A stretch of DNA of 56,527 nt from a virus (IMGVR_UViG_3300003888_000070:1-56527); one strand, 5' to 3'. Positions 4,536 to 45,664 are shown, counted from the first letter of the stretch. Notes: generated by a model from the letters alone, not told the origin. A program made the numbers and translations.

Positions 4536-4798
4536 CATAAACATCAAATTCTGTGCAAAGTGCATGGATGTCAATTCCGAATCTTCACTGCTAAGAATGC
4601 ATGATGCGATTATAAGTCTGAAAAAATATCTGAACATAATTCTTATTGCGGAGCACATAAACCAGTACGAAATCTGCGTGACAGCTAGATAAAACCAGGA
4701 GGATAGGGTGAAGGATCCGGAAAAGACAAACTACAGTATTTGAAAATGCATGACAAGTTGAAATTCACAATATCCTTACCAAGCAGTATACTTAAATT

Positions 4799-8222: not shown

Positions 8223-8223
8223 T

Positions 8224-9153: not shown

Positions 9154-9186
9154 GAACTTTTTAAAATTTTACATTTGACGCATTGT

Positions 9187-10020
9187 CTATTTATGACAGA
9201 GGACACACCCCTTAGTCGTTCCATAAATATCGTCGTTATCAACAATGTCCAAACATTGCCTTAAAGGATTCTGCCTATGTGCTGCTTTTATTTTTTTCAA
9301 TCTCTGTGCGTAGTCTTTTTGAATACTTTCTATTCTTTTAGGACAAGATAATTGTTCTAAGGATTCGCCCTGACTCCATGTAAACGGGGAACCATGCTCT
9401 ATAGCTGTTTTTTCATATTTCATAGCTTCTTCAAATTTATCAGGGTGCTCATCAATAAGCCTTACCCATTCTATTTTTTGTTGAAAAAAACAAAAAGTAC
9501 ATCCTGACCTCGAGCGCCACCTATAGTATTTTGGCAACCCAAGTCCAGATGCATCTAGAATTTCCAATATACCGTTTTTATCGACCCCGTTTTCTCTAAA
9601 AGGAAGTCTTACTTTCAGACTAGGATGAGTCGAGCTGTAACCTTCTCGGTAGTTTTCATCAGCACGTATCGCTACAAAACTTTCAACTTTTTGATTTTCA
9701 TTCAATGAAGGCTTTATCCATTGCTCAAACGGACGTAATTTTAATTGCCGTGTACACCAACGCGATTGGGCTGAAGGTAAAAAATTCTTGTATTGCTTAA
9801 GCCAAAAATCAAAGTCACGATCCGGGTTTAAATATTCTATTGGTTTTCCCAGAAAACCCTCAAGCTGAATGAGATATTTATAGACTTCCGGAAGCTCCTT
9901 CCCAGTATCAGTAAAGAAATAGTCAATGTCCAAATCGGGATGATTTTGTCGCATATACACAGCCAACGCTGCGCTATCCCGTCCTCCAGAAAGACCTAAG
10001 ACATACCGAGTAGCTGTCAT
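9187..10020 (-). CDS. sspD: PAPS reductase-family ATP pyrophosphatase, SspD
   Basis: LSGGRDS PP-loop, RWCT, RSGCTFC and terminal CVLC; last gene of the DUF4007-ATPase operon. Confidence 0.85.
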   Translation of the reverse strand: MTATRYVLGLSGGRDSAALAVYMRQNHPDLDIDYFFTDTGKELPEVYKYLIQLEGFLGKPIEYLNPDRDFDFWLKQYKNFLPSAQSRWCTRQLKLRPFEQWIKPSLNENQKVESFVAIRADENYREGYSSTHPSLKVRLPFRENGVDKNGILEILDASGLGLPKYYRWRSRSGCTFCFFQQKIEWVRLIDEHPDKFEEAMKYEKTAIEHGSPFTWSQGESLEQLSCPKRIESIQKDYAQRLKKIKAAHRQNPLRQCLDIVDNDDIYGTTKGCVLCHK

Positions 10021-13000
10021 GACTGAGTCTCTTGCCTGTTGAACTGTTCCGCTATTATTTGTGTACTAGTCACCTCATCAAGATACCTGGCGCTAATCTC
10101 TGCCAGAGCCGCAAGAATGATATTTCGTTTGGATCGGTCCGCTGTCTTCAACGCCGTATCGACGTGACGAATGACCGTCTCGACATCTGCCCGATCCGTA
10201 TCCGTAACTTCGAACTCGCCAGAGACTGGCGTCGGTCGACCACCAATCCCAACCACGACGGCCATGGCTTGACGCTTGTCAGGCCTTCCCTTAACCCGGG
10301 CAAACGCTTCTGCACGGATGAATTGCTGTGAAATAGCTGCTAGCTCTAAATTCGCTTGATCAAGGTCGGCATCAACCCAATTCTTTGGAGATTTACTCAC
10401 GACAAGCGCGGCGATGCCGTCCATATCTGCTTCTGATCCAGAAAACTTCATAAGACGACTTATGAATGCATCCAGACGATAATCACCCGTTAGTTGATGA
10501 ATATTCTTTGCCCGCCCTCTTAAATCTGCCAAAGCACGCGTCGATTCGTTTGGCACCTGAAGTTCCGCCATCATTACCGCGCGAAGACGATGCAGCATAT
10601 CGCTATAAGCAATAGTCAATTCATCAATTCCGTCTTTTATTCTCAAAAGCACATCATCAATTGCAGTAGCATCAGACGCATCGTCAAGAAATACCCGAGG
10701 GATATCATCAAAAATGAACTTATTCGGATCGCGTGCTTGCTTAAACAAATTTCGAACCGTTGTTGCATTTTTTGACAACAAATGAGTCCGTTTAGCCCAC
10801 TGTGGCAAACCATCATAAATTGAAACGAGACCTCGAGCGACGTCAATCGGTTCCATGCCTACAAGCTGTTCACCACCGCCTTGGCCCTGGACCACTTGGG
10901 CGAGCCCGGACAAGATATGCCGAGAGGTATCGGACAACTCCATCCACCGGATCTGAATGGAGCTCGGGTCAATAGCAAGATAATCCACGTCAAGGTCGGT
11001 GAAACGGGCTTGGAAAACTCCCTCTCGATAAAAAGCCAACTGGTTTTTATACCCAAGGATAAAGGCGACGCCGAGGATTGGCAGCATTCCCTCTTTGATC
11101 CCGAAGGGAGCGGCCCGCCAGCACGAGTACAGCTCCGACAAATTAATCGATCGATCAGAAATCGAAGACACAAGCTCGAATGCGGCCTTCCAAGCAGGGG
11201 CGAGATAGGATGGGTCATTGTCTGGCTCAGGAGCAGTAAAATGCCAGCCTTGCTCCGCATTCTCCCGGTACAATCGGGACTTCAACAGAATCGAATCAAA
11301 AAGACCGCCCTCCGCCGGATAGCCCTCGATACCCAGGCGAAGCTCACCTTCCCCTTGGACCATTCGCTTTAATAGAGCTTTCTGCGCTGCGACTGCATTC
11401 GACGAAGGCTTGACGCGATTTACGAGTTCATTTGGAAGACGCGGACTTTCCGAAAACATCTTATCGGCAAGAGTCGAAGCAAGAACATTGAGTCCCGCAA
11501 AGGAATGACGTTGCGGCTTTTCGTTAAGCTGAAACCAATCAGCTGTATCAAATATTTTTTGGAGATCTGTCTCTAAACGCGTTCGCAAATTTGCTATTCT
11601 TGCAAGCACCTCACGCCGTGCGACACTATCTCCAGCCAATTCAGGACGCTCTTCACGCACTCTGCTGATCGCTAAAAACTCCTTAGCAAGCTGAAGCACA
11701 TGCCAGGCCTGTCCCGACAATCCTATTACTACACACCCTTTCGCAGTTGATACTGCTTCATGACAAACTGAATGCGCATAAGCCGCTGATTCATTGGCGG
11801 TTGGAATCGCGAGTAAAAACTTTCCGATTCCTCCCCCTGGAAAAGGAGCCGCTGAAGCTGTTGCAAGAGCATCGCTAAGAGGGATCAAGTCGGCATCGAA
11901 CCATCGAAGCGCCCCTGTCTTATGATAGTGGCGTTTTGCCAAAATAGGCTGAAGGCCCGCAAGGGCTCGGAGTTCATGAAAATTGACATCAGGCAGATTC
12001 GCAAGCGCTTCAGTCAGGGCTCCTTCTATGTCAAAGTCACTTCCTGCATAAATGGCGTAAGAACCAAGATGTTTTCGAAAAATTATAAAAGACCAAGCGA
12101 CTAAATTTTCTAGCGCTTGCGCAACTTTTTGCGGGGGTTCGTTTGCAAAAGCAGCTTCTACCAGCTCGGGAGTGGCTATCAATCCAGATCGTTCGCGAAA
12201 TAAATCAATAAGCGAGATTGTTTTTAACAGCAAGACTTGCAGTGGCTCAGTCCCAATGGCCTCACACCGTTCGATAACTTCGACGGCCATTGACCACCTA
12301 TGCCCATCTGGTGAGGCCAAGATAGCCGACTCAAGGTTGGATCGCAGATAATCCCAAAGACGATCAGGGGTGTAGAGATCCTCTTCCCTGGCACTGCGAA
12401 GAAAATCTTGAAAGCCATACGGTTCAGCCGAACTAAGAAATCCAAAGAGCGAACGCTGGTTCTGCCCGAAGCGACGCCGCGAGATCGGTCCGAGGAGACT
12501 GGACACGACTGGATGCAGCGGCCAGCATTTTTTGAGAAATTTTGAAAGATCAGCAGACGCTGAACGATTCGCTCTGATCACTTCAGCAACAGCATTTATA
12601 CTCAAAATATCTGGGACATCACCCTGCACTTCAATCGCTCTCGAAAGAAGTTCAAGGTGTTCATCGCCACTGACATTGACAGCAAGGTCAACAAAACGCC
12701 CCTGAACTTTGGCCCATTCATCGCGCAGTTCTCGTGCGATCCGCTGTGCGTACTCATCAAACGCCTGATGCAGAATGCCAACGATGACGAGACGGCCATT
12801 GCTCCGGGATGCTGCTTCAGCAAGTTGCTGAAACAAATAAATATCTGTGCCACGTTGGGACGCTGATTCAAGAAATTTACCCATCTCATCAAGAATAACA
12901 ACGAGACCATCCTGGCTTCTGGATTCAGCTTCAACCAAATCAGTGAGAAGCTGGACAATCTGGGTATCCGTCCAGGAAGATGTTTCCTCCGCCGGAATGA

Positions 13001-13406
13001 ACCCTCTGGCGACCAAGGCTTCGCCGATCACTGCGGCAGGGTCTCCCCTGCGTCCAACCACGGGCAAAATTCGCCAGCCCTTCCCCCCCGGTGGTAACGC
13101 TTCCCACAAGGTCTGAGCGACCTTGCTTCCAACGATGTTCGCGGCTTCATCGCGCAGTTGCACATTCCCGTTCAACAAAGCGCCAAGTGCAACAACAAGG
13201 CTCGACTTCCCGCTGCCGTAAGGCCCAGTCCATGTGAATGCCGCCTGCCCAGTCTCTTGGACATGTCTTGCCATCGAAAGAATGACTTCCGCAGAGGACT
13301 GTGGGCACACAAACCCTTCGAGCGCGCGAGGATCACCGAGATCCGTGTCGATGCGGATCGAGCGTTGAAAACGACGCGCGACATGAACGTAATCAGAAAG
13401 TGCCAT
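10017..13406 (-). CDS. sspC: Large P-loop ATPase, SspC
   Basis: RFQRSIRID N-terminus, GPYGSGKS Walker A, ILDEMGK Walker B, WPLHP, FGQNQRSLF. Confidence 0.85.
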   Translation of the reverse strand: MALSDYVHVARRFQRSIRIDTDLGDPRALEGFVCPQSSAEVILSMARHVQETGQAAFTWTGPYGSGKSSLVVALGALLNGNVQLRDEAANIVGSKVAQTLWEALPPGGKGWRILPVVGRRGDPAAVIGEALVARGFIPAEETSSWTDTQIVQLLTDLVEAESRSQDGLVVILDEMGKFLESASQRGTDIYLFQQLAEAASRSNGRLVIVGILHQAFDEYAQRIARELRDEWAKVQGRFVDLAVNVSGDEHLELLSRAIEVQGDVPDILSINAVAEVIRANRSASADLSKFLKKCWPLHPVVSSLLGPISRRRFGQNQRSLFGFLSSAEPYGFQDFLRSAREEDLYTPDRLWDYLRSNLESAILASPDGHRWSMAVEVIERCEAIGTEPLQVLLLKTISLIDLFRERSGLIATPELVEAAFANEPPQKVAQALENLVAWSFIIFRKHLGSYAIYAGSDFDIEGALTEALANLPDVNFHELRALAGLQPILAKRHYHKTGALRWFDADLIPLSDALATASAAPFPGGGIGKFLLAIPTANESAAYAHSVCHEAVSTAKGCVVIGLSGQAWHVLQLAKEFLAISRVREERPELAGDSVARREVLARIANLRTRLETDLQKIFDTADWFQLNEKPQRHSFAGLNVLASTLADKMFSESPRLPNELVNRVKPSSNAVAAQKALLKRMVQGEGELRLGIEGYPAEGGLFDSILLKSRLYRENAEQGWHFTAPEPDNDPSYLAPAWKAAFELVSSISDRSINLSELYSCWRAAPFGIKEGMLPILGVAFILGYKNQLAFYREGVFQARFTDLDVDYLAIDPSSIQIRWMELSDTSRHILSGLAQVVQGQGGGEQLVGMEPIDVARGLVSIYDGLPQWAKRTHLLSKNATTVRNLFKQARDPNKFIFDDIPRVFLDDASDATAIDDVLLRIKDGIDELTIAYSDMLHRLRAVMMAELQVPNESTRALADLRGRAKNIHQLTGDYRLDAFISRLMKFSGSEADMDGIAALVVSKSPKNWVDADLDQANLELAAISQQFIRAEAFARVKGRPDKRQAMAVVVGIGGRPTPVSGEFEVTDTDRADVETVIRHVDTALKTADRSKRNIILAALAEISARYLDEVTSTQIIAEQFNRQETQS

Positions 13407-14383
13407 TATACAGCCTCCTTGAACTTTTGCGAATTATAAACCTTTCGCATTAGTTCAAACAAATCATCCTCACTCAACGGCACCTTCCGAAAAGCCTGCT
13501 TTAAACCTGCCGTCTCTGACCAAGAATAAACTCCTTTTGTAAGCTCATCCATAGCCAACAACCGATCCGAAAGATCTATCTCATCCAGCAAAAACACTCG
13601 CCCTGGCGATCCCGGTTCATGAGCAATTGTCTCAAAGGACAAAGTTTTCCTGTCACCATACTGATTCCAGAAACTATTTAATGCATAGATAAAAACTTCG
13701 TCTGGCAGAGAACGCTTCGATCCACGTATAAATTGAAAATTCCCTTTTAATCCACGAACAAGTCCAAGTTCTGCGAGTGAACTCTCAAGATTATCTTCTA
13801 CACTTCCAACATCTCCAGTCGGTCTACTTTCGTATGTTCTAACAAAACATTCTACATCGCGCTGCACAGTTGTCCGTGAGACTCGTGACCAATTTCGTGT
13901 TTCTGCAAGCTTCATTAATCCGTCAACCAGAGCATCTCTTCGAAACGTAACACCACTAAAGTAATTAAATGCCCAATACCAAGTCGTCTTGAGGCTTTGA
14001 AACGAGCTTCCTGAACACAGATTCCAGTGCAATAGCCATAAGCTAGCAGGGTGCTCAAGATATTTATCTACACCTTTTTTCGATCTGAATAAAAATTTAC
14101 CGAACTCAGTCACAACTAACTGCCCAGTTTTTTCTTTTTCCTTGATCACGTTACAGGCTGCCGCCCAATGCCGCATCGACTTAACCATATTCTTACCAAC
14201 GCCAAAGCGAGCAATAGCTTCATCACTTAAAAAAATAGACTTATTGTCGGGATCATTGCGTGATGCAAACACCGCGTCATAGGCCTTTTTAAGCCACCCA
14301 TAGCGCAGAGGAAAGGTTTCATGTCCAGAAAACAGGGGTCGATACTCAGCTTGATGGAGCAGTCCGCGTCTCATTTTTACCAC
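13406..14383 (-). CDS. sspB: DUF4007-family protein, SspB (nicking component)
   Basis: FSGHETFPLRYGWLKK and FGVGKNMV signatures; start codon uncertain. Confidence 0.85.
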   Translation of the reverse strand: MVKMRRGLLHQAEYRPLFSGHETFPLRYGWLKKAYDAVFASRNDPDNKSIFLSDEAIARFGVGKNMVKSMRHWAAACNVIKEKEKTGQLVVTEFGKFLFRSKKGVDKYLEHPASLWLLHWNLCSGSSFQSLKTTWYWAFNYFSGVTFRRDALVDGLMKLAETRNWSRVSRTTVQRDVECFVRTYESRPTGDVGSVEDNLESSLAELGLVRGLKGNFQFIRGSKRSLPDEVFIYALNSFWNQYGDRKTLSFETIAHEPGSPGRVFLLDEIDLSDRLLAMDELTKGVYSWSETAGLKQAFRKVPLSEDDLFELMRKVYNSQKFKEAV

Positions 14384-14484
14384 CTGGAAGGTTTATCCAG
14401 GTCGACAATACCGAGGCTCGGAGGTATAGTCAACCGAACTGGCCCAATCCTCCAGGCGGGCCAACAGTCCTACGAGCAAAGACA

Positions 14485-15651
14485 ATGCCCACCCAAAATT
14501 CAGTTCATATTTACTTGGATTATCAGGCCACAACCCCTGTCGACCCTCGCGTCGTAAACGAGATGGCACCTTATTGGTCTGATTTTTTTGGTAATCCGCA
14601 CTCTTCAGACCATTCTTTCGGATGGCAAGCCCATGAAGCTGTTGAGTCGTCACGCGCTCAAATTGCCTCACTCATCGGGGCTGATCACGAGGAGATCATC
14701 TTCACGTCCGGAGCGACTGAATCAAACAACCTCGCCATCCTCGGAATCGCTAGGGCAATGCCCTCAACCCGACGGCGCATCATTATCAGCGCAATCGAGC
14801 ATAAATGCGTCATTGCCGCTGCCCATGCTGCTATTCGCGAAGGTTTCGAAATAGTAATGGCACCGGTCGGCAGGGATGGAATCATTGACCTGCAAGCCCT
14901 TGAACACTTGATTGACGAAAGAACTGCTCTCGTTTCTGTTATGGCTGTGAACAATGAAATTGGGACCATTCAGCCAATTCGTGACATCTCAAAATTATGC
15001 AATAAACATGGCGTATTATTGCATTCAGACGCTGCCCAAGCGCTTTCTATTCAAGCGATAGACGTTGATGACAGTGGCGTAGACCTCATGAGCTTGTCAG
15101 CGCATAAAATTTACGGGCCTAAAGGCATTGGCGCTCTCTACATACGAAAAGACATCGCAATCAAGCCTGAACCGATAATTCACGGTGGTGGACAAGAATT
15201 AGGATTTCGGGCTGGTACAGTGCCAACCCCTCTTTGCGTTGGATTTGGAAAAGCTTGTTCCATACTTGAATCAGAAATTGACATCGAAGCATCTAAACTA
15301 AAGAAATTACAATTATATTTTACAGATGTTCTTCGTTCTCTTGACGTTCAATTTTCAATAAACGGATCGCTGACACATAGGCACCCAGGAAATTTAAATA
15401 TATTATTCCACAAAATTGATGCAAGCTTATTATTAAACGCTATTCAGCCAACGATTGCAGCATCAACAGGTTCAGCTTGCAGTTCTTGGATTCCACATCC
15501 TTCACACGTACTCCGAGCTATCGGACTATCTGCAGAGGAATCTGAATCGTCTATCAGATTTAGCATTGGAAGATTTACAAATCATGACGACATAACATAT
15601 GCATGCAAGAGATTGAACACTGAAATACAAAGGATTTCTGAAATTTTCTGA
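14485..15651 (+). CDS. sspA: Cysteine desulfurase (IscS/DndA family), SspA
   Basis: YLDYQATTP, SAHKIYGPKG (PLP Lys), STGSACSS (catalytic Cys); divergent from sspBCD. Confidence 0.9.
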   Translation: MPTQNSVHIYLDYQATTPVDPRVVNEMAPYWSDFFGNPHSSDHSFGWQAHEAVESSRAQIASLIGADHEEIIFTSGATESNNLAILGIARAMPSTRRRIIISAIEHKCVIAAAHAAIREGFEIVMAPVGRDGIIDLQALEHLIDERTALVSVMAVNNEIGTIQPIRDISKLCNKHGVLLHSDAAQALSIQAIDVDDSGVDLMSLSAHKIYGPKGIGALYIRKDIAIKPEPIIHGGGQELGFRAGTVPTPLCVGFGKACSILESEIDIEASKLKKLQLYFTDVLRSLDVQFSINGSLTHRHPGNLNILFHKIDASLLLNAIQPTIAASTGSACSSWIPHPSHVLRAIGLSAEESESSIRFSIGRFTNHDDITYACKRLNTEIQRISEIF

Positions 15652-15683
15652 CCACATCAGTCATAATATTTTACTGTATCGCG

Positions 15684-15917
15684 TCATGGAAAATACTCTA
15701 TTGGTACTCCCATTGCTAACATTTCCCTCTGCCGCCTCTCCGGCAACGGCTCCGTACAACTCACCAGCCACTTCCCCGGTGCAGACTTATGCACCCCCAT
15801 CTTCTGCGCCAGGGCAGCCAAAGTAAGCCCCTCCCCGCGCAGCCAGAGCTTTAGCCGTTGCTCCCGTGGCAATGCCGACCAGTCCGTTGGCAGGACCATG
15901 CCGCTTGGTCTGCTCAT
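15684..15917 (-). CDS. Second Cro-like XRE HTH protein (77 aa)
   Basis: LTLAALAQKMGVHKSAPGKWL HTH; C-terminus LAMGVPIEYFP resembles LIALGVPAELLP of 2799-3071. Confidence 0.7.
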   Translation of the reverse strand: MSRPSGMVLPTDWSALPREQRLKLWLRGEGLTLAALAQKMGVHKSAPGKWLVSCTEPLPERRQREMLAMGVPIEYFP

Positions 15918-16072
15918 ACCCACACGTATCTGCGGTCGAAGAATCTGATCCGACCGGCCGCCAGGAGTTGCTGCACCGTAAGGACCACATGCGCCCACAC
16001 CCGACAGAGACAGGCCCGGACATCGATCACCCCTGATCGGACGGTGCGCCAGGCTGTTTTCGATGTCAGCAT
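15914..16072 (-). CDS. Small hypothetical protein (52 aa)
   Basis: Start overlaps the upstream stop and its stop overlaps the next ATG (coupling at both ends). Confidence 0.4.
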   Translation of the reverse strand: MLTSKTAWRTVRSGVIDVRACLCRVWAHVVLTVQQLLAAGRIRFFDRRYVWV

Positions 16073-16842
16073 GCCATACCCTCCCGACGGGGCCTGAAGC
16101 AGGCGAATTCCCAAAAGGTGGCGTCCGCCCAGCACAGGCGTATCCCTTCAACGCCGGCATGATAGGTCGGCATCGGCTTGAAAAACCGGCATTCGGGACA
16201 AGGGGCAGCGCCGGCCAATGGTTTGGACCGGACAAAAGGCTGTGCAACCGCCGTTGCTTCCTCCGTGGCCACCGACTCTGCCGCCTCACGCTCTTCCGAT
16301 TCCACCGGCTCTTCCTCTGGCAGCGGCGCGTCCTGCTTCAAGCCGACCACGCCCAGCAAACGATCCAAGGCCGCAACATCGGTACGCTGCAGTACAGCAA
16401 ATCCCTTCTCCCGGACGAATCCTTCCACCAGTGAATCCACCCACAGGCAACGCAGGCCGCTCACACCCTGGAACTGCTCCTGGTGGAGCACCCGAAAGCC
16501 GAGCATGACCAGCCAGTCCGCCATCAGCAGAGACCGGCGTTTGCGCAGCTCCGGCATCACCCGCCGGTTATAGGCCGTCAGGATAAACTTGACCCCGAGC
16601 CTGCCCTCATCGATGTCGGGCCATAAGGTGGCCAGGGTCTCGGCCAGGGCCAGCTCGGCCGGGTCCGTCACATTCGCCGGCGGATCAAATTCATGCCACT
16701 GGGAGCAGGACAGACAGGCCTTTGGCCGCGTCGGCAGATTCGACAGCGAAGACGACACCGGCCGGGTCCGATTCGCCTTGCATTGCGTCGGGCTGAGCCG
16801 GGCCTTCAACCCCAGGCAATCAAACAGCACCACATGATCCAT
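16066..16842 (-). CDS. Hypothetical protein with Cys clusters at both ends (possible Zn-binding)
   Basis: C..C..CLSC at the N-terminus, CPEC..C..C at the C-terminus; AGGA RBS. Confidence 0.65.
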   Translation of the reverse strand: MDHVVLFDCLGLKARLSPTQCKANRTRPVSSSLSNLPTRPKACLSCSQWHEFDPPANVTDPAELALAETLATLWPDIDEGRLGVKFILTAYNRRVMPELRKRRSLLMADWLVMLGFRVLHQEQFQGVSGLRCLWVDSLVEGFVREKGFAVLQRTDVAALDRLLGVVGLKQDAPLPEEEPVESEEREAAESVATEEATAVAQPFVRSKPLAGAAPCPECRFFKPMPTYHAGVEGIRLCWADATFWEFACFRPRREGMAC

Positions 16843-16868
16843 TCAGTCATCCTACGGCCAGATTGAAG

Positions 16869-16921
16869 GGCTTGATCGATTAAGCCGCGCGTCGCGGCAC
16901 GCAACGATACCGGACCTAGCT
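16869..16921 (-). ncRNA. Putative guide RNA: eight period-5 NGY-NN units plus 3' hairpin (vrRNA-like)
   Basis: Minus strand AGC-TA GGT-CC GGT-AT CGT-TG CGT-GC CGC-GA CGC-GC GGC-TT, then hairpin GGCTT-AATCGATC-AAGCC; begins 2 nt after the RAMP gene stop. Confidence 0.65.
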
Positions 16922-16922
16922 T

Positions 16923-17573
16923 TTACGTCGCACCCTGGGGGACAAGGTCAAAGGCGAACCGACCGAATCCCCCGCCCCGAAACTGACCAAGCCCTTTAAT
17001 CTGCCCATATTCCAGAATCTGCTCCACAACGCCCCATTGCACCTCGCCGTGCGGCAACAGCCCTATCCAGACGTCAAACGAAATCCCGGCGTTGATGATC
17101 TCGGAGGTGGCGATGCAGCTCATAGGCCCCTCCTTGGTGATCCGCCGCAGCGGCCTCCGGAATATCCCGTTCGGCTCCTTTTGCAGCGGAATGATCCGGG
17201 GACCGCAAAAGAGATAGCGAGTCAGTTTGTTGCGCAGAGCGGCAATGCCCTGCTTCGTGGTTTTGGTCCGTTTGACCATGGTTTCATGCTGCACAATATC
17301 CTTAAGTGTATTGCCGGCCTCCTTGAGGAACCCAAAGAACTGGTAATCCAGGATGGAGCACCAGCCATCCTGGTTGCGCAGAAACACGGTTGTGCGTTCA
17401 TCCACGCCTTCCGGCAACATGGCAGCCTCTTCAGCCCCCTCCACGTCGGGTTCCGGAGCCCTGGCCGCCACCAGATCCTGGTACACCTGCCGCTGCGACG
17501 GCAACGAGCCCAATATCGGCTCAACCAGGGTGATTTTGTATGTCCGGTATTCAATCCGGTCCGATAACGACAT
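16923..17573 (-). CDS. Stand-alone Cas7/RAMP-superfamily protein (Vipr-like)
   Basis: N-terminal strand YKITLVEPILGSLP, helix YQFFGFLKEA, C-terminal glycine-rich loop GLGQFRGGGFGRF typical of RAMPs; no other cas genes in the window. Confidence 0.8.
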   Translation of the reverse strand: MSLSDRIEYRTYKITLVEPILGSLPSQRQVYQDLVAARAPEPDVEGAEEAAMLPEGVDERTTVFLRNQDGWCSILDYQFFGFLKEAGNTLKDIVQHETMVKRTKTTKQGIAALRNKLTRYLFCGPRIIPLQKEPNGIFRRPLRRITKEGPMSCIATSEIINAGISFDVWIGLLPHGEVQWGVVEQILEYGQIKGLGQFRGGGFGRFAFDLVPQGAT

Positions 17574-17582
17574 ATCGCCCCC

Positions 17583-20500
17583 CTACTCCCCGTTTGCCGC
17601 CAGAGCGCCCCAGACCCGTGCCGCCCGGTCCATTTCCCGCTTCTCCCGCTCCCGCAAAATCTCCATGCGCCGGGCCTTCACAACGTCATTCAGGCGCAGC
17701 CTGCGCAGTTCGGCCATGTCTGCATGGATCGACTGCACCCGGCCGACCAGGGCGCGCAGCCGCGGCAGCCGCATTTCGCTGCGCACAGCCATGGCACCTT
17801 TCATATCCCCGGCATCGCGCAAGGCGTCATAGCGCCCCTTGGCGTCCAGATAGGTGCGCCGCAGCTCGTAATAGGGGTGGGACAAGCCTTCGATGTCCCC
17901 GGCGTCCACAGCGTCAACGACTGGGGCGGCCACTGTTTGGCCGCCTAAGCGCGCCTGCTCCCGCTTGGTGGGCCGGGACAGCCGTTCGGTCTGGCGGAGC
18001 AAGGATTCCCTGGTAATGGGCGCAACCCGGCCGGCCAGCCCGGCTTCGGCCACGTCCTGGTTGTAGTCGGCCACGGCTTCGACCAGGGCCTGCCGTTCGC
18101 CGGCATCCCGGCCGCCATCCAGGGCAAAGGCCCGGAACCGGGCATAGAGCCTATCCCGGCGGTCGCCAAAGCGCCTTTCCTCGGTGATGGCCTCGCTGGT
18201 GCGGTCCCTGGCCCGGGCCTCGCGAAGCGGCCGGAACCCCAGCGCCTTGGCCACGGATTCGCCGGCCGTGGGCCGAAGCGGCTTCCCATCCTCGCCGATG
18301 ACCGGATAGTTCTTGCCCGTGGTCACACCCTGGTTCGATTCGCGCACAGCCTGGAGGAACTTGGATACGCCTGACGGCAAGGCCTTTTCCGCCGCCCGCC
18401 CGGGCTGGCCGCCGGCCAGATAGCCCACGGCCGAAAGCACGTCCTTGGCCATGCCGCCCACGGGGCCAAGCACGTCGGTCCAGGTATCCGGCATGTCGAT
18501 CATGGTCCCCAGGCTGCCGGACAGGTCCGCGCCGGTAGCCAGCCCCAGCAGGCCGAACCGGGCTAGGTCTTCGGCCCCGCCACCGAGGTTTTTGACCAGG
18601 AAATCGTACACCCACCTTTCCGGGTCATCGTCGCCGCCGCCGGCCGCAACCAGCGCCTTGGCCAGCGACGTCAGCACATGTCCGCCAAGCCCGCCCAGAA
18701 CAGCCGGCGCAGCCAAAGCGAACGTGGCCGCCTGCCAATCCTTCCTGGCAAACAGCTCATGTACGAGTTGCAAATAGTTGTGGCCGTACTTTTTGTAGAC
18801 GTACCACGCCTGCCCGACCCGCGCCCCGGCCCCGGTCCCCCAGGTCCAGGTGGGTTGGGTGGCCCGGTCGTAGACGCCGTGCGCCCGGTCCGACGCCTCC
18901 CTGGCCCGGGCCACGGCCGTGGCATGGCCGGCCCCGCCGGCCCCGCCGGCCCGGGCCAGCCGGTAGCCGGCCAACAGCGTCGCCCCCCGGTTTAGCTGTT
19001 CCGTGGCCCCGAAAAGGAGCATGGATTTGCCCATCAGCCAGGACCAGCCCCGGCCGGCCGTGTCGCGGTAGACGCTCAAGGCCTCCCGGGCAAACTGCGG
19101 ATCATCCAGGGATTCCCGCCGGATTTCGTCCAGGAGCTGCTGTTCATCCGCCGTAAACCGGCCCCATTTGCCGGTCATGCGGCCCAGGTAATCGACCATG
19201 CTCCGGGCAATCTCGCGCCCGACCCGCGCCCAGCCGCCCTTGCCCTGCATGGCATAGGCATGGAGCGCCGCCGGCACCGACGTGGCCATGCTGCTCAGGT
19301 TGACGAGCGCACTCTTGGGATTGAGGCCCAGGTATTTGAGCGACGCCACCGACTTGGCCAGGGCAAACACCCGGTCCCCGGACTCGGCGTTGCGCAGGTT
19401 CTCGGCCAGATAGTCCACAGCCAGCCGGTACGTGTCGCGCTCCTTTTTGATGTCCAGGCCCGGCGTCTCGGCAGTGCCGAAAAGCACCTTGGCCGCCTTC
19501 TCTGCCGCCTCCATCTTGGCCAGCCCATAGGCCGTGGACCCGGCATAGCGGGCAAAACGTTCCACCGCGTCCTTGAAATAGCCCTGCACCACGTCGCCGT
19601 GCCGGCCGCTGCGCCGAATGGACTGCGACCGGAAGCCCCGAGCCTTCACCTCGTCAGCCAGGTTCTCCAGGATCTCGCCCACCAGCCCGGCGTCCACATC
19701 CTCGCCCACCTGGTTGACCGCCGACTCGACCGTCTTGGCCAGCTCCAGGGTCTTGATAAGCCCCTGTGTCGCCTCGGGCAGCTTGTCCAGTTTGCCCACC
19801 GGCTCCATGTCCCAGCCGTCCCGGGCCATCGTGGTGCGCAGCTTTTCAGCCGACTTGCGCCATTCCTTGTGGGCCCGGAACCGCTCCACCGTCCCGTCCG
19901 CAGCCGTGCGCTGGCCGCGCACCACATAGTCCCCGGCCTCGCGCAGACGCGGCGCATAAAAGCCCCGCAACTGGCCCATCTTCTCCACCATTTCGGCAAA
20001 GGAAAACGCCGTGCCGTTTTCGTCGTGGAGCTTCACATCCGAAAGCTGGCCCTTGATGGTCACCCCGGCCTTGCGGGCAGCGGCCACCACGCCTTTCACT
20101 TCGTCGGCGTAAGGAGCCAGTTCGTCGGCCAGGGTCTTGTCGGTGTTGTAGCCGGCCGCATCGAAAGCCTTGGCCGCATCGGCCGGGATGCCGGCGTCAA
20201 TCAACCGGCGCACGATCTTGCGCTCATAGCCGCTACGCGCCTTGTCGATGAGCTTGCGATAAGAGGCCAGCCGCTCATCCAGCAGCATGTCGTAGCGTTC
20301 GCGCATGGTGCGCCACAGGCCGATGGTGGCCTCGTTGGCCCCATGCTCGGCAAACCACGTCTCCATGGCCTCCGGCCCGACCTCGTTGACGTCGGCGTAG
20401 TCCACGCCCTCGTTGAGGATGTCGCGTTGTTTCTGGTCCTTGAGGACGACTTTGGCTTCCTGGTTGATGGTGCGCCCGTCGCCCAGGTCAAAGGCCTGGT

Positions 20501-23500
20501 GCAGCAGTTCATGGGCGCGGTCGGTGCGGCCCCGGAACGTCTCGTACAGGCGCTTGAGCACCGGATGCTGCCAGTATTCCGGCGACCGCACCATCTTGCC
20601 CAGCACCCCGGTTTCCGACAGACCATGTACCCCGGCCAGGATGGAGCGGACATTGGCCGAGGCCTCGTCTTTGAGCCAGGTGGCCACGTCGCGCTTTTCT
20701 TCCGGGACGCCGGCCAGATCGCCGGTGCGGGCGAAGCGGGGGCCACTTCCTTTCTGGGGCAGCCCCTGTTCGTACTTGACGAGATCAACTTCCGTGAATA
20801 TCTTTCTCTTGTCCCTGGTTGGCATCTCTGTGGGCAATTGCAGCCCGAAAGATCTCTGCCAACCAGGGACTTTCGTTTTATCCCTGTAGAGTAACCCACC
20901 ATCACGAATCTGGTTTGATACCCACTGCGGCTGTGTCCCCCGGGCATGGACGCTTGCGACCTCGTTGATCTCCGCACGCCCTTCCCGAACATTCAGATGT
21001 ACTGCTGCGACCAGGAATGAACCCTGATGCGGCAACTCCGTCACCAGCACCAGACTATCGGCCCAGGTGGCAGACTTCAGGACAACGACAGGTCGCTCCA
21101 ACGCTTGCGGCAACTGTTTCAGCACTTCCGGTGAAACCCCGTGCTTCCCGCCTGCATCCGCCCCCTTCAATATTTTATTCGCTTTCGACTGGGTCATTTG
21201 CAGGGGCAGATCATGTCCGCCAAGCAGCCCGATCACCGGCGGTGTTCCGCCAAGGTCGAGACGCTCGTGGGGATGAAACCGATTGCCCAGGAAATCATCC
21301 ACCTGCTGCGCCCAGGAAGCCCCTTCCCCGCGTGAAAACGCCGGCGCGACGTTCAGCGGCTGCCCCAGCGGCGCAATGAAATCCAGCCCCTTGCCGTCCA
21401 CAAAGTCATCGGCCTGGGCGAGCAGCTGCCGCAACTCGGCCCGGGTTAATTCCAGCGTCGGAAAGATTGAGCGCACCCAGGCGGCGATTTTGGACAGCAG
21501 CCGGTCCAAGGCGCGATGCACCGTGCCGTCCTTGGCCCAGGACACCAGGATTTCCTCGGCTGCCTCAGCCCGGGTTTGCCGGGTGGAGTCCAGACCGTGG
21601 CGCGTGAGCCAGCGCGACACCTCCCGGGGCATGGCCTGGGCCGCCTTGCGCATGTACTCCTCGCGCTCCTGGGAGCCGCCCAGTACCCGATCCAGCCCGG
21701 CATGGCGGCCTTCGTGCCGCAACAGCGTCTGCACGAACGCCGCCTGCCCTGCCTTGACCGTGGGGATGTTCCCGGCCACCAGGGCAATGCGCTTCGTCTC
21801 GGCGTCATAGGCCCCGTGGAACCGCCCGGACACCCCGGCATCCTCCACTGCCTCGCGCAGATCCGCCGGCATGTCGGCCTCGGACTGGTACACGTCCACG
21901 ATGCCCCGCAAGGCCGGAAACTGCGCCACCCCCCGGCGCAGTTCGGCCGCCACTGCCCGAGCAATCGGGGAAGACACGGGAGGCGTTGGGCCGTTGCCAC
22001 GCCGATAGAGCGGCTGGCCTTTCATGGCCGTCCGCTTCATGGCATCGGTCAGGTCGAAGGACCAGACTTCTGGGCCGCGCAATTCCTGGAGTGCCTGCTG
22101 CGCCTTGGCTTCCGTCCCGAACGGCCCGGCTACGTCTCGGCCGTCCTGGCCTCCCTGGCTGAAATCAGAGACAAACCACTGGCTGCCGTCCGTGCCCTGC
22201 ACCACTTCATAGACCCCAGGCAGCCTCGCTGTTTCAACCTTCCCACCAAACTGCTTGATATACTTGGCGACTTCCTTGGGCAAAATCTGGTCGTAGAAGC
22301 CACGCATCCCTTCGCCGCCGACCTTGAGGTCCAGGCCGGAAAGCGCCTTCCAATCTCGATACGGTGACCTGTTGGTGGGGCGGCCTTCATCACGTTGTAT
22401 TTTGTCCGCGACCTCTTTGCCGGCGAGTTCCTCAATACGGGAAAGTGGAATCTCATCTTCGTGGACGACTTCGATGCCAGTCCTGTCGTAGGCAATAAAT
22501 TCGTACTCCCCAGTCGGATTGCCGCTGTCTTCGTCATAGACCGCCTCGTATTCGACGCGATCAAGCTGCTTCGACAAGTCATACCGCGCCGCCTGCATCT
22601 CTCCAGGGGTCCAGGACACTCGATCAAAGCCCTTTTCGGCGGCGTAACGGATCATGCGCTTCATGGCCAACATGGCCCAAGAGGAGGTGTTCTTGAATGG
22701 AGCGTCGGGGACGCCAGTGTCTACGGCAGTCCCCCGATTCTGATCTGCATCTGCGAGAGCCTCTTCGCGCGTGTCCCCAAAGCCGATGGCGTCGCCGTTA
22801 GCGTTTCGAATCTCCCAGGCAGGGCCGCTTTTGGTTTGAATCTCGTTGACCGTCTCCTCGCCACGATACCCTTTTCTCTTCCCCTCCTGATGCCAGTCGC
22901 TTTGAATCTCCTCGATATGCAGGACGCGTTTACCGTCGTGGTCGACTCGCTCGTTGAAGCGGATGTGGGCAAGAACACCTTCCTCGTCCCAATGCTCAGT
23001 TGCGTATGCTCCATCAGGGAGTGTAAGCAATAACTCCTTGTATTTATTGCCACCTGGACTTTGATAATTGGAATACTGAGTCTTTCCGTTGCCACCTGAC
23101 ACCTGGGAGGCAAGGACATCGCTTTCAAGAAGCCCCTCAATCTTTTCTTCACGACTCAAAACATCAAAGTAGGCCGGGTCTACGCCTGGGAAATAACGAT
23201 CAATCCAGTCTGGCGTATCAATGATATATTCGGCACGTCGCCGCATCGCATCTTCAATAGTTTTGTCCTCTGGTGAAACGTCCTTCACTACCTCCACCAC
23301 ATCAATTTGCCGCGTCGCGATTTCATCCAGCACGTCCTGGCGCGTAACCAGCCGTTCCTGCAGCCCGGACAGCCAGGACTTTAATCCAGACTCTTCCAGC
23401 TCCACGCCCTTGAACTTGCCGACGTGCTTTTCGATGGCCGCCAGCATTTTTTCGGCCGGCGCGGATTTGGGCAGCATTCCCGGCATCTCCAGGACGCGCT

Positions 23501-26500
23501 GCATCTGGGAATAAAAAACCGGGGCCACGGTACCATCTGTGGAGGAAGAAACGGCAGAAAACTCGCCGCTCCGGCTGAACATGGCCACGCCCCGGCCCGT
23601 CTCCTTCGTCTTGACCGTCTGGAAGAACTTGTCGAAAGCGGCGTTGATGGCTTCGCGTTCCGCCCCTTCAGGGAACGGCCGGACGTTGAACAGCCGGTAT
23701 TCCAGCATGGCGTTGTTCGCACCATAGACAAGGAAATCGCTGCGGCCGCCGTCCTGCGCCACCCTATCTTCCACGTAAGAGGAAAACGCCCGGGCGGCCA
23801 ACTCGTGGGGTTCGCTCCAGTAATCCGACGTCCTGCCCTGGTCCATGAGATAGGCGGCGCGCCGGTATTCCGTGGGAATCTGCTTGGTCTTTTCCGTCTT
23901 ACTCCTGGCGTCTTCCAGCATCTTCGCTCGCCTGGCGAAGTCCTGGACATTGGCCGCCAGCGAGTTGAAGGGGCCTGTCCGTTCCGCATTGAATCCGCTA
24001 CGGCCGCGAACCTCCTTGTAGATCGCCGCAAGGCCGTCGAGAATGTCGTTGCTGGAGCGGTAGGAGCCAAACCGGCTGCGCTGCCGCCCCCCGGCCTCAT
24101 TGCTGCGCATCTCCAGGGCCAGATTGTCGCCGCTTAAAAGCTGTTCCGCCAGGGCGTCAAACCGCGCCAACTGCTCGGCCGTGGCCGGTGCGCGCTTCCT
24201 TCCCCACTGTGCTTCCTCGGCGAGGCCAGCGCGGATGTCCTTCAGACTCCGTTCCAGATAGCCCCGGGCGCGACGAACAAACTGCTCGGCCTTTTCCGTG
24301 TCTTCCTTGTACTGTTCCGCCTTGTAGGCGATGTCGCCAAGCAGCTTTTCATAGGCCCCCCGCAACGCTTCGCGCACCTGGGACTTGCGGCTTGCCCCGT
24401 GGCTCAAATAGTCCCGCGAAGGGGCATCACTGGCGGCGAAAACCTGATCGCCGCGCTTGTTCTCCACCTTCTCCGACGATGCCTTTGTATCCTGCCGCCC
24501 GAGGTAGTGATCCAGCGCATGGTACCACTCATGGGCTAGGGAGCCGGCCCCGGTCAGCTTAGTCAGGTTGATGACGCCGTAATCCCGCTCGTAATGGGCT
24601 TTGGCGCTGGAAAGGCCCCGCCCGCGTGAGCCAAAGGCCAGGGCCAGATCACCATTAAGGGAAAGCGCTTTAGGTGGAATATTGAGGATTTCGGCCAGAT
24701 CAAGCAGACCGTCATAAGCATGGTTGAGCACTTCCTGCCGCTCGGCCTGGTCGTTCCACTCCCCGAATTCCACGCCACGGAAGCCAAAGGCATCCAGGAA
24801 ATCCTGGCCCTTCGCCGGCCCCTCGCGCCGGGGCGCACCCTTCCGAAATACCTTTTCCGGTCTGGCCAGGATCTCCTCGCCAAACCCGGTCTTGGTGTTG
24901 AGGATGTCTTCGGCATGTTCGGCCATGTACCGCTTGGCGTCTTCCTCCGTGGCGAAGCCGTCCTTGATGACCACGGTCTTTCTGTCCGTGACCTTTCGAT
25001 AAATCTCCCAGGCGTCGCCGCGCTTCGTGACCCGGTGCTTTAAGGATACGGCAGCCAGCGGGATGGCCGCTTCGGCTTCCTCCTTGGAGTCGAACTTGAA
25101 CCGCCCGGTGCGCAGCGTGCCCTTCTGGTCGGCAATGGACCAATAGGTTTTGTCCTCGCCGGAGCGGAACCCGGTTTCACTGACCTGGACAGCCACGAAC
25201 CGCTTTTTCCAAGCGGGCACGGAGTCGTCTTTCCCAGGCAAACGGACGCGAGGGCCGGTCGGCGCAGCCGTATCCTTGCGGGAGCCGCCAATCTTCTCCC
25301 CAAGGGCGAGACCGATCTTTTCGCTTGGCTCCGGGGTCGCCGCACCAGCAGCTTCTTCAGGCCGACTTTCGGCGGCAGAGGACTCGTTCTGTTCAACTGC
25401 CGGCGACGGCTCGATAGCAGCCCCAGCGTCCCCGGGCAGCACGGCGGCCTGATCCTGGACACCACCTTGCACTTCGCCGGCGGCCACGCCTTCGGCCTTG
25501 CCCACCTTAGCCGGCTGTTCGGCCTCGCCGACTACCGCGTCATACGCCGCGCGCAGCTTCAGTTCCGGCGTATCGAAAATCGCTTCCAGAAACCCCAGCC
25601 GCGACTTCCGGCCCGGCTTGACGCCAAGGGCCTTGCCCAGGGCGTTTTGCTGGTCAGGGGTCAAAGCCTGCAACGCCTGCCCGCGTGTGGCGGCGTTCAT
25701 GGGATGCGGCGGTTCCGGCGGCCGTCGCGCAGCAGCGACTGCTTCCGCCGGGGTGTTGCCGCTGTACTGCGAAATCTGGTGCTCATCCGAACCGGCAAGA
25801 GCGTTTAGAACGGCATAGCGCGGCGGCATCCCCTGGCCCATGACGTTGATGGTTTTGACGCCTTCGTGCTCAACAACAGGCACCTCCCGCAATGTGTCGC
25901 CGGACCAGACCTTGGCCGTCTGCGGTGCGCCAACGGCACCGGGCTGCTCCTGCCCCGGCCCGGCCGCCGCCTGCCGCGCCTGCTCGATCCGTCCCACCAG
26001 ATCGTCCCGGCGAATCGCCACCGGCCGCTCGATGCCAAGCGACGTGGCCAACGCATTGAGTTCCTTCTTGCTCCTGGCCTTGAGGTCTTCGGCCGCCGGG
26101 GCGGCTTGCGCTCCCTGGATATCGGCTTGGGGCTGCCCAGTATCGACTGGGGGGTATCCAGCGACGTCCCGGGCCTGTCCAGCAACGTCCTGCCCCGCCG
26201 CCTGCCGTGCCTGCTCGATCCGTCCCACCAGATCGTCCCGGCGAATCGCCACCGGCCGCTCGATGCCAAGCGTTGTGGCCAGCGCATTGAGTTCCTTCTT
26301 GCTCCGGGCCTTGAGGTCTTCGGCCGCCGGGGCGGCTTGCGCTCCCTGGATATCGGCTTGGGGCTGTCCAGTATCGACAGAGGGGTATCCAGCGACGTCC
26401 CGGACCTGTCCAGCAACGTCTCCTGCCGGCTTTTCTCCCACTGCCAAAAGCGGCACTTCGCCGGTCGGCAGCACCCCGGCCGGGGACTGCTCCACCAGGG

Positions 26501-29578: not shown

Positions 29579-31510
29579 CTACACGCTGGCGGTATAGTTG
29601 TAATTTTTGCTTTCGCCGTAGCTTGTGCTTCGCTGTGTGCTGGTGCTTGTGCTGGTCTGGGTGCTTTCAGATACCGAGTGCCCCTCGCTCACGGTATCGC
29701 CGTAGCTGGCCCCAAGACTGACGGCGGCGTGAACCATCGCTCCAGCCGAGGCGAATCCCTGGCCGGCCACCTGCGCCGCCGTGGCGGCCGCGCTCTTGCG
29801 CAGCTCGGCGACGGCCTGTCCCCATTGCAGGCTCAACCCGGCTTCTTTGATCGAAGCTTCCAGCCGGGCCGACCATTGCTGCACCCGGGCCAGGGCGTTT
29901 TGCACCTTGGCCTGATTTTCCGCCGACACGCCGCTGATGGTCGCCTGATGCAGCGCCACAAGGTTGGCCGCGTGCCGGGACACGGCTTCGGCCTGTCCGA
30001 GACGACCCTGCCAGACGGCTTGGTAGCCCTGCATTTCGGCCTGGAAGAGATTGACGTTGGAGGCATTGAGCTGGCCGGCGATGTTCGCCCGGATCTCGCC
30101 GATCCTGGCCGTGGCCGCCGCTGCCTCGACCTGGCTCTGGAAGGCCCGGGCCTGGACCTCGAACACATCGGCTTTTGCCTTTTCTCCGGTAATCCGCGCC
30201 ACCCGCGCGTTGATCTGGGCCGTTGAGGCATTCACGCGCGCGGCAAAGGCCTGGACGGAAGTTTCGTAGGCCTGGATGCGCGCCTTTTGCACCTCGGCCT
30301 TGACGGCCGCGCCCTCCATCCGGGCCTTGTAAATCTGGATGAGTTCGCCAACGGCCTGGACGCGGGCTACATAGAGAGCCACTTCCTGCTGGTTCAGCTC
30401 TCCCCGGACCCGCGCCCCCTCCATGGCCGTCTTGTAAGCCTCCAGCTCCGACAGGCTGGCCCGGATGCGGGCCTCGAGCACCGCCGCCTCGGCGTTGTAG
30501 GCAGCCACCTGGCAGTTAAACAGGGCCACCCGGGCGTCCACGTCCTGGTAGGCAGCGGCGACCGTGGCCTTGGCCGCCTCCAGCGCCCGGTTGTTGCCGG
30601 AATTCCAGACATCGAGGCACACCCCAACCACGGCAGCCAGTGCCTTTTCAATGACAAACTGCCGGTTCTGCACCGTCAGCTCGGCTTTTTTGGCCGTGAT
30701 CTGGTTGAGCAGCGCCTCCAAGGATTTTTCGGCGTCCTGCTCAATGAGGCGGATGCGCGCGTTATCCACGGCGGAAAGACGCTCGAAACCCCGGGCTGCG
30801 GCTTCGGCGTAAACTTCTTCCTTTTTGCGTTCCCGCTCATCGACAATCCACCGTTCCTGCTGGGCGAAGATGCCGGCCGTCTCCAGGATGGCCGACACGT
30901 TGCCGCCATGGAGCAGATCGTCGACCAGTTGCCCCTGCAACGCATCCCACAACGGCGACTCGAACTGCCCCTCGTTGTAGACAAACACCTGCCCCGGCGT
31001 GTCCATGGCCGGCAGCGTTGGCCGCACGCCCTCGAACTGCGGGATCACCAGCGAGGGCATGGCCGGGACGTCCACCTCGGACAGCGACGGCGCATCCGGC
31101 AGCGTGACGTCCGGATCGGCCGGCAGATCCACATCGGCCAACACCGGGGCCTCGCCGGGCGACTCCGGAAACACGATGTCGTCAAAGGTGGGGAATGCGA
31201 TCTCCGGCGGCACGGCGTTAAAAACCGGAACCGTGACGTCCGTGATTTCCGGCTGCACGAGCGACGGCGCAGTCGGCGCGGTCGGAGCCACGACGTCCGC
31301 CGCCGGCAATCCGGGAGCACTCGGCAGGGAGGCCAGCGACGCCCCCTCCGGCGCTTCCGGATAGGACACGGCCGGCATGGCCGGCATCAGCACGCCGGCC
31401 AGAAGTTGGCTGATGCCGGTCGTCACCGATGTATAGAGCTGTTGCTGGTATTGCAGCGCGCTCTGATGGATTTCCCCGACTTTCTGCCCGGCGGAATCAA
31501 TGCCGCTCAT
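29579..31510 (-). CDS. Putative internal virion protein (Pro-rich N-terminus, long coiled coil)
   Basis: Composition and position in the late operon. Confidence 0.7.
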   Translation of the reverse strand: MSGIDSAGQKVGEIHQSALQYQQQLYTSVTTGISQLLAGVLMPAMPAVSYPEAPEGASLASLPSAPGLPAADVVAPTAPTAPSLVQPEITDVTVPVFNAVPPEIAFPTFDDIVFPESPGEAPVLADVDLPADPDVTLPDAPSLSEVDVPAMPSLVIPQFEGVRPTLPAMDTPGQVFVYNEGQFESPLWDALQGQLVDDLLHGGNVSAILETAGIFAQQERWIVDERERKKEEVYAEAAARGFERLSAVDNARIRLIEQDAEKSLEALLNQITAKKAELTVQNRQFVIEKALAAVVGVCLDVWNSGNNRALEAAKATVAAAYQDVDARVALFNCQVAAYNAEAAVLEARIRASLSELEAYKTAMEGARVRGELNQQEVALYVARVQAVGELIQIYKARMEGAAVKAEVQKARIQAYETSVQAFAARVNASTAQINARVARITGEKAKADVFEVQARAFQSQVEAAAATARIGEIRANIAGQLNASNVNLFQAEMQGYQAVWQGRLGQAEAVSRHAANLVALHQATISGVSAENQAKVQNALARVQQWSARLEASIKEAGLSLQWGQAVAELRKSAAATAAQVAGQGFASAGAMVHAAVSLGASYGDTVSEGHSVSESTQTSTSTSTQRSTSYGESKNYNYTASV

Positions 31511-45663: not shown

Positions 45664-45664
45664 G

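Follow-up and report, generated by a model that had tools for sequence, protein, structure and literature searches.

A candidate single-guide VIPR locus in a phage of the Desulfovibrionaceae and its predicted target in a conserved gene cluster of the host genus

What does a run of five-base units placed directly behind a phage gene do and, if it is a guide, at what is it aimed? The question is raised by a stretch of viral DNA of 56,527 nucleotides (the window), a 56.5-kb phage genome with an SU10-type portal and adaptor, DnaB and an AntA antirepressor. The minus strand at 16921-16882 reads AGC-TA GGT-CC GGT-AT CGT-TG CGT-GC CGC-GA CGC-GC GGC-TT, eight NGY-NN units exactly as an earlier note on this DNA had written them. 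Of the eight triplets, four are CGY. The rest of the interval marked in the note, to 16869, holds an imperfect palindrome, GGCTT/AAGCC, and a further palindrome, GCCGCG-ACG-CGCGGC, is present within the tract. The note had proposed a gapped guide for which every third target base is skipped.

A system of this general form has been described recently. VIPR (Viral Interference Programmable Repeat) combines a phage-borne stand-alone RAMP protein (Vipr) with vrRNAs, which in the main text of the preprint consist of 9-16 YNNGG units followed by a tail (bioRxiv 10.64898/2026.04.26.720920). Each protomer takes one GGY, the NN pairs with DNA and every third target base is skipped; the alternative repeats NNNGG, YNNNG and NNNNG, and systems with a single vrRNA, are also mentioned there (bioRxiv 10.64898/2026.04.26.720920). 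The GGT-NN arrays of the SUSP1 system (Escherichia phage phiSUSP1, type II) were confirmed in KT454805.2.

As a bare periodicity the tract is weak. It is the only NGY-NN run of at least six units on either strand of the window, where the next longest has five, and a run of at least eight appeared in 8 of 400 first-order Markov simulations of the window (P = 0.02; analytic expectation 0.021). Among 200 patterns with two fixed positions per five-base unit the G-Y pattern ranks about fourth of the distinct ones, so that the run fails multiple testing, and the tract's lag-5 G-Y score of 8 is equalled by other 60-nt stretches of the window. The periodicity is meaningful only because the GGY/NN pattern was specified in advance and because of the genomic context.

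The tract starts one base (A16922) past the TAA stop codon (16925-16923) of an ORF on the same, minus, strand. The next ORF starts with the ATG at 16842-16840, and the tract takes up most of the 80 bases between the two. Units 1-7 of the putative vrRNA (16887..16921, minus strand; dinucleotides TA CC AT TG GC GA GC) form a strictly conserved core. Unit 8 (GGC-TT; 16882..16886, minus strand) keeps the scaffold with an unconstrained dinucleotide and supplies the 5' arm of the GGCTT/AAGCC palindrome. A candidate 3' tail (16843..16881, minus strand) is made up of a variable loop and a conserved block of 24 bases, CAAGCCCTTCAATCTGGCCGTAGG (16874-16851), which overlaps the ribosome-binding region of the next gene. 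Rfam had no matches in the whole window at the gathering threshold, no tRNAs were found in it, and TRF reported no CRISPR-like repeat-spacer array; a terminator and promoter scan of 15500-18000 made no call at the tract. When 12 window ORFs were compared with PADLOC, the only Cas-named matches were weak helicase-domain ones to a single ORF (4799-6430).

Several other features of the phage genome were recorded. Immediately upstream of the gene that precedes the tract is a polyvalent protein of 3676 aa (17583-28613) with LPD1, MuF_C, repeated Rho_N-like modules and an HEWYH metalloprotease-like motif; its gene contains a 231-bp tandem duplication (25964-26420, 96% matching). Directly downstream of the operon is a low-GC island (4089-15651; GC3 0.30-0.46, against about 0.7 elsewhere), which holds a complete SspABCD phosphorothioate-modification set (SspA 14485-15651, SspB 13406-14383, SspC 10017-13406, SspD 9187-10020) together with a PbeA-like helicase (4799-6430), an MzaB-like HATPase protein (6408-8222) and a DrmC-like ORF (8224-9153). 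Next to the portal gene is an ORF for a patatin-like phospholipase (44755-45882) that matches 'Effector' phospholipase models of PADLOC (E 2.7e-69); no cyclase that might partner it was seen in the scanned ORFs.

The Vipr-like protein and its relatives

The gene whose stop codon adjoins the tract (16923..17573, minus strand) is vipr-like and encodes a protein of 216 aa, a candidate stand-alone RAMP (Cas7-like) with a C-terminal G-loop, GLGQFRGGGFGRF. It has no Pfam, PHROG or PADLOC family, and its 39 close homologues are all annotated as hypothetical proteins. A profile search with the family gave 2519 cluster representatives at E <= 0.001, and the C-terminal motif YGxxKGLGQ[FW]RxGGxGRF is invariant throughout the homologue alignment. 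The AlphaFold (AF2) model (pLDDT 88.9) found Cas7-type RAMPs as its top matches in two independent structure searches, in the order type VII Cas7 (E 4.9e-6), Csm3 and Cas7-11 with Foldseek; on this model the protein is predicted to fold as a Cas7-like RAMP.

Profile-profile comparison with hhalign links the protein to the SUSP1 Vipr clade with a probability of 90.2% (E 1.5e-6) over 123 columns of its C-terminal two thirds. Against the single SUSP1 sequence the figure is only 35.7%, and the PDB chain named 'SUSP1 Vipr protein' scores E 0.25. These comparisons place it as a remote, not close, homologue of the characterised SUSP1 Vipr. The alignment puts Q197, F198 and R199 of its G-loop opposite D177, W178 and R179 of SUSP1, of which, as the structural preprint describes them, D177 reads G1, W178 stacks on G2 and R179 holds Y3 (bioRxiv 10.64898/2026.04.26.720927). 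In the homologue alignment the aromatic residue and the arginine are kept and the G1-reading aspartate is replaced by an invariant glutamine, which fits a scaffold whose first position is free.

Arrays of the same kind occur beside related genes. The 91 related loci were reduced to 60 distinct ones by dropping duplicates (identical in the first 60 bases past the stop), five loci that end before the stop and loci with fewer than 100 bases after it, and a strong array was defined as a same-strand stretch of 100 nt whose lag-5 G-Y score is at least 10, no more than 1.3 kb from the gene. Such an array accompanies the vipr-like gene in 48 of the 60 loci and usually begins at its stop codon, as in the window; distant flanks reach a score of 10 in only 2 of 42 loci. 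The 12 loci under the threshold include the seven close relatives of the window, which have short tracts with scores of 8-9 that are not distinct from background on this measure. In one distant relative (L085, 4601-4680) the array opens with a 20-base segment present twice and in phase, which suggests that guide units have been duplicated within the array.

Position 1 is G in just 40% of 3877 array units of this protein family. The family scaffold is therefore NGY and not GGY, and the CGY units of the window, which had been suspected of being a scaffold variant, are normal for it; they also agree with the YNNNG-type repeats already published.

Downstream of the tract, an ORF of 258 aa (16066..16842, minus strand) is a candidate accessory (vap-like) gene. 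Its product has two clusters of four cysteines, both invariant, and a variable, acidic linker, and it has no match in Pfam, PHROGs, PADLOC, a PDB profile search or the Atlas. The ten homologues found all belong to the Desulfovibrio/Solidesulfovibrio clade, and one of them adjoins a Vipr homologue by locus tag (AAGU21_01110, AAGU21_01115).

Conservation of the repeat units

Eight orthologous loci were compared: the window, L001, L006-L010 and L033. Their vipr genes are 76-93% identical in DNA to that of the window, and they vary at 124 of 162 synonymous third positions (76.5%), at 26% of first and at 12% of second codon positions. Against this background 2 of the 35 columns of units 1-7 vary, namely N1 of unit 2 and Y3 of unit 6 (C/T). 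Not one of the 14 NN columns of these units varies, so that dinucleotides 1-7 are kept more strictly than codon second positions. The G at position 2 is unchanged in all eight units, and the G-Y phase that had been described as fixed is retained in 64 of 64 units. Unit 8 changes at N1 and Y3 (C/T), and its dinucleotide is TT, TC, CT, TA or GT.

Further sequences extend this picture. A ninth locus (L206, in G282) has GT in unit 8; over units 1-7 it is identical to L001, L008 and L010, all of which depart from the window there by a single base, the C at N1 of unit 2. In three metagenome runs, contigs show C-to-T at N1 and T-to-C at Y3 of unit 5, C-to-T at Y3 of unit 6, and TT to TC in unit 8; a fourth run (X4) had no coverage of the locus. 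The sole NN variant among the guides is GA to GT in unit 6, seen in two runs (X2 and X3) of one study, which makes one change in dinucleotides 1-7 over 12 sequences of the close clade. In relatives at 55% identity (L011 and L012) the dinucleotides are wholly different.

This is the pattern expected, from these alignments, for a Vipr-bound scaffold and a guide under purifying selection. The expectation in the earlier note that GY would be conserved among orthologues while NN varied is correct in its first half; in the close clade dinucleotides 1-7 are conserved, with the one change noted above, and they differ throughout in L011 and L012. The eight-unit guide of that note is likewise to be shortened, with units 1-7 constrained and the dinucleotide of unit 8 (TT in the window) probably outside the constrained guide. 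Conservation of all 35 bases is also what a functional element of another kind could show.

The predicted target and its gene cluster

The one-base-skip pattern of the guide, TAnCCnATnTGnGCnGAnGCnTT, has one exact 16/16 match in G001, the chromosome of a Solidesulfovibrio sp. that carries a prophage (L001) with a near-identical VIPR locus. This genome was chosen beforehand and was the first to be searched. The reversed pattern, used as a control, has no match in it, and the number of chance matches expected there is 0.0008-0.0018 for 16 bases and 0.03-0.045 for the 14 bases of dinucleotides 1-7. The site lies near the 3' end of a minus-strand ORF of 547 aa, which has no Pfam match and for which phrog_10969 (E 3.8e-77; 'unknown function') is the only family. 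It encodes N-A-S-A-Q-I-G-Y (residues 498-505), and 7 of the 7 skipped bases are codon third positions; the unit-8 TT of the window agrees with the target. A guide in which every third base is skipped, as the earlier note had envisaged, is matched here exactly and in codon phase in a host-type genome.

There are 22 exact and 19 one-mismatch matches in 401 family genomes, compared with 11 for the reversed pattern. The exact matches that were fetched (14 of 14) fall at one site in homologues that are 55-100% identical, and they differ only at skipped bases. Because the 22 exact matches are homologous sites they count as one independent event. Alternative rules were tried in five genomes selected for carrying the match: a 0-nt skip and two permutations of the NN order gave no matches, and a 2-nt skip gave one with one mismatch.

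The target gene was counted in the genus of G001 by a protein search that is independent of the guide pattern; a conservation profile of homologues that the pattern itself had picked out is biased for that reason and carries no weight here. It is present in 25 of 25 genomes at 67-100% identity without internal stops, and the site has the exact allele in 18, NATAQIGY in one and SATAQIGF, which retains 13 of 16 bases, in six. Vipr occurs in just 2 of the 25, both of which have a 14/14 match for dinucleotides 1-7; the VIPR carrier is therefore sporadic and the target universal. The guide variant GT corresponds to the Ser-to-Thr allele of the target that is found in 7 of the 25 genomes, a covariation of guide and target that is modest (about 1 in 16 to 1 in 21).

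The target gene is part of a one-strand cluster of about 27.6 kb (G001:C1:4614118-4641698; L136-L138) that includes portal, major head, virion and fibre-like genes. Colinear counterparts, 72-79% identical in nucleotide sequence, exist in four further complete genomes (G213, G134, G040 and G243). The cluster is flanked by ordinary host genes, on one side SLT, a sigma-54 regulator, a GDSL lipase, PilZ and LPG synthase and on the other a chemoreceptor, a response regulator and a hybrid kinase; each flank is kept in three of the four comparisons at an identity similar to that of the cluster. No terminase or integrase was seen among the cluster ORFs scanned, a set that excludes two ORFs spanning locus boundaries. 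There is no Vipr within 60 kb of the cluster, and a search of IMG/VR found no relatives of the target protein. By comparison of these genomes we infer that the cluster derives from a phage and has been inherited vertically. It may be a domesticated element that forms particles, similar to a gene transfer agent (GTA); one such agent, Dd1, is known in Desulfovibrio (PMC11841831).

The window phage is itself related to the cluster, with which it has a structural module in common at about 35-59% amino-acid identity (tblastx). Its own phrog_10969 copy (29579..31510, minus strand; tblastn E 3e-76) has about 35% identity to the target gene and lacks the target site, the aligned site reading VHAAVSLGASYGDT and the target VNASAQIGYSES. 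The earlier note had seen no full match within the window, and none is present there at up to 3 mismatches (0.36 expected). Of the records of five VIPR-bearing relatives, three hold their own copy at 33-35% identity without a guide match inside, and in the other two (CheckV completeness 93% and 16%) no copy was found.

Other matches were examined and set aside. A guide scan of IMG/VR gave seven exact matches, none in a homologue of the target gene, which look like chance; as a baseline, the 16-base guide of the relative L085 gave 26 chance-like matches in 19 unrelated clusters. Neither of two relatives had a guide with a convincing target. That of L011 (13 units, fixed 1-nt skip) had no match in any of 401 genomes at up to 3 mismatches, a search that is uninformative because two 6-base steps of the array, and its host, are uncertain. 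A group of one-mismatch matches beginning TGCCCGATCTG, in which the first dinucleotide is TG and not TA, falls in a host response-regulator/HD gene of five genomes (L119 and L122-L124, in G040, G243, G182 and G345, and G353; checked in L119) and was judged a chance near-match. This is probably correct; these five genomes fall in the six-genome subclade whose target has the escape-like SATAQIGF allele.

The vrRNA could be real and the phrog_10969 site nevertheless not be its physiological target, the match being a coincidence and the true target lying elsewhere, in an unsampled phage or satellite, or being RNA. Over 14 bases 0.03-0.045 chance matches are expected in G001, and about 0.2 exact 16-base chance matches are expected over the 401 genomes when scaled from the 11 of the reversed pattern (<=1 mismatch). 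The site is near the 3' end of its gene and not at a promoter, the element is vertically inherited and no obvious competitor, and the guide is antisense to the mRNA, so that it may act at the RNA level. Against coincidence stand the exact 16/16 match in the first, pre-chosen, single genome, the skips on wobble positions (1 in 3 by chance) and the nature of the matched gene, a phage-type structural gene homologous to one of the VIPR phage's own. The guide variant GT is also a natural target allele, and the two genomes of the genus that have Vipr each match dinucleotides 1-7 at 14/14. None of the other skip rules or NN orders tried yielded anything comparable. We consider it unlikely that the target lies elsewhere.

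Transcript structure and the proposed role of the locus

The folding of the region bears on whether the 35 invariant bases act as RNA structure. As a single sequence, 16835-16945 folds no better than its shuffles (z = 0.86). The inner palindrome that the earlier note had offered as an ordinary hairpin exists and is 95.8% paired over the eight sequences, but it has no compensatory change and is broken in two of the eight. That note had set a hairpin kept by covariation, in place of the G-Y phase, against the guide; it is the phase that the eight loci keep. The GGCTT/AAGCC helix, which it had assigned to the last unit, is present as an imperfect palindrome, 85% paired with one compensatory change (L006). 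This level of pairing was reached by 188 of 500 shuffles and the RNAalifold covariation term is 0.08, so the helix, like any conserved tail structure, is no more than a candidate. RNAalifold also pairs the first two units (16911-16919) with a conserved CTGGCCGTAG (16851-16860, minus strand), which sits just upstream of the ribosome-binding site and start codon of the next ORF; the paired columns are invariant save for one GU-to-GC change (L033).

A second alternative is that the tract is a cis-acting element of the vipr-ORF258 operon, a protein site or an mRNA structure for translation or stability, with an incidental five-base phase. The near-invariance of 35 bases, NN included, within the close clade would suit it, as would the well-paired inner palindrome and the pairing of units 1-2 with the element upstream of the next start codon. 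The substitutions point the other way: every one in the scaffold is at N1 or keeps the pyrimidine at Y3, and in the covariation view no helix has a compensatory change. With the inner hairpin broken in two of eight loci, a fold no better than shuffles and so low a covariation term, and with the arrays beside 48 of 60 relatives and the codon-phased target match left unaccounted for, a cis element is improbable. That the periodicity is chance in an ordinary GC-rich intergenic hairpin or terminator, as the lack of significance across the pattern family and the equal lag-5 scores of other 60-nt stretches might suggest, is scarcely credible and largely refuted by the want of any terminator-like call at the tract, by conservation far above that of coding second positions, and by the RAMP-gene neighbour, the arrays in relatives and the target match.

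The tract is thus very probably the guide part of the single vrRNA of a phage-borne VIPR locus. As such the locus would add to the VIPR systems of the 2026 preprints one in which scaffold position 1 is relaxed, the guide is short and conserved, and the predicted target is unusual and well defined. It resembles SUSP1 in having a phage stand-alone RAMP of about 200 aa with a G-loop, same-strand five-base G-pyrimidine/NN repeats after the gene and then a small second gene, and in a coding-sequence target with 1-nt skips on wobble positions and no self-target. It differs in having one vrRNA of eight units, where SUSP1 has four of about 12, in its free scaffold position 1 (A, G or C) with glutamine for aspartate, in the lack of an evident pseudoknot tail, and in an accessory ORF that is unrelated by sequence search. 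Guides of the published VIPR clades, SUSP1 included, are hypervariable, whereas that of the window is conserved across orthologues; the characterised clades have 9-16 units and the window eight, of which seven are constrained. Among the alternative-repeat VIPRs, for which the main text of the preprint supplies neither sequences nor taxa, the YNN[G/C]G units of the window fit the YNNNG class, and the window too has a single vrRNA.

Other known systems are also comparable in part. The VIPR clade of P. fulva prophages is like the window in that its guides find their matches in phage-type elements living in the host genus of the prophage. The P. fulva guides concentrate, according to the main text of the preprint, on lysis-lysogeny regulators of mobile prophages (bioRxiv 10.64898/2026.04.26.720920), whereas the guide of the window matches a gene in the structural operon of an element that 25 of 25 genus genomes possess. 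The closest solved folds to the Vipr of the window are the Cas7 backbones of class 1 CRISPR systems (Csm3, Cmr4 and type VII Cas7), which have in common with it an RRM core, a thumb, a G-loop and a periodic interruption of guide-target pairing. Their period is six with five bases read, compared with five and two in VIPR, and the window has no CRISPR array or other clear cas genes.

We propose the following mode of action. The minus-strand late operon would end in a two-gene VIPR locus comprising the Vipr RAMP, one vrRNA and the small cysteine-rich ORF, and the vrRNA would be expressed and assembled into a ribonucleoprotein. By analogy with the SUSP1 complex, one Vipr protomer would cover each five-base unit and hold its G2 and its pyrimidine Y3, and the NN pairs would be available to pair with double-stranded DNA, each unit passing over one base of the target. 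As TA-CC-AT-TG-GC-GA-GC, the guide would read the codons for N-A-S-A-Q-I-G-Y with its skips on the wobble positions, so that synonymous drift of the target could not break the match. Binding at the target, if it takes place on DNA, would be expected to stop transcription of the distal half of the operon and so to silence it. The phage's own copy of the gene, diverged at the site, would be spared.

A further and more tentative suggestion, to which we would give somewhat less than even weight, is that the single conserved guide is aimed at a host-domesticated, vertically inherited particle cluster and not at another mobile phage. The cluster would then be either an element like a gene transfer agent or a cryptic prophage that has become fixed, intact in all 25 sampled species. 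Since the guide reads only non-wobble bases of eight conserved codons, such a resident element could escape only by a change in its protein. If this is true, the Ser-to-Thr, Tyr-to-Phe and Asn-to-Ser alleles (7 of 25 genomes) and the GA-to-GT guide would be traces of an arms race.

VIPR is known from 2026 preprints only, in whose main text the experiments are on an E. coli phage and a Pseudomonas prophage, and 'Desulfo' does not occur in the main text, supplements aside, of bioRxiv 10.64898/2026.04.26.720920. The locus described here would take VIPR into phages of the sulfate-reducing Desulfovibrionaceae. It is a compact natural system with one guide and seven constrained units, its relaxed position 1 and its glutamine in place of aspartate make a testable idea about structure and function, and its predicted target is unusually clear, with a guide that does not change as the vipr gene beside it falls to 76% identity. 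Should the suggestion of a domesticated target be true, this would be the first RNA-guided viral system directed at a domesticated host element. If the cluster is indeed a domesticated particle-forming element, the phage would be silencing phage-derived machinery owned by its host, and the ecological role of VIPR would be wider.
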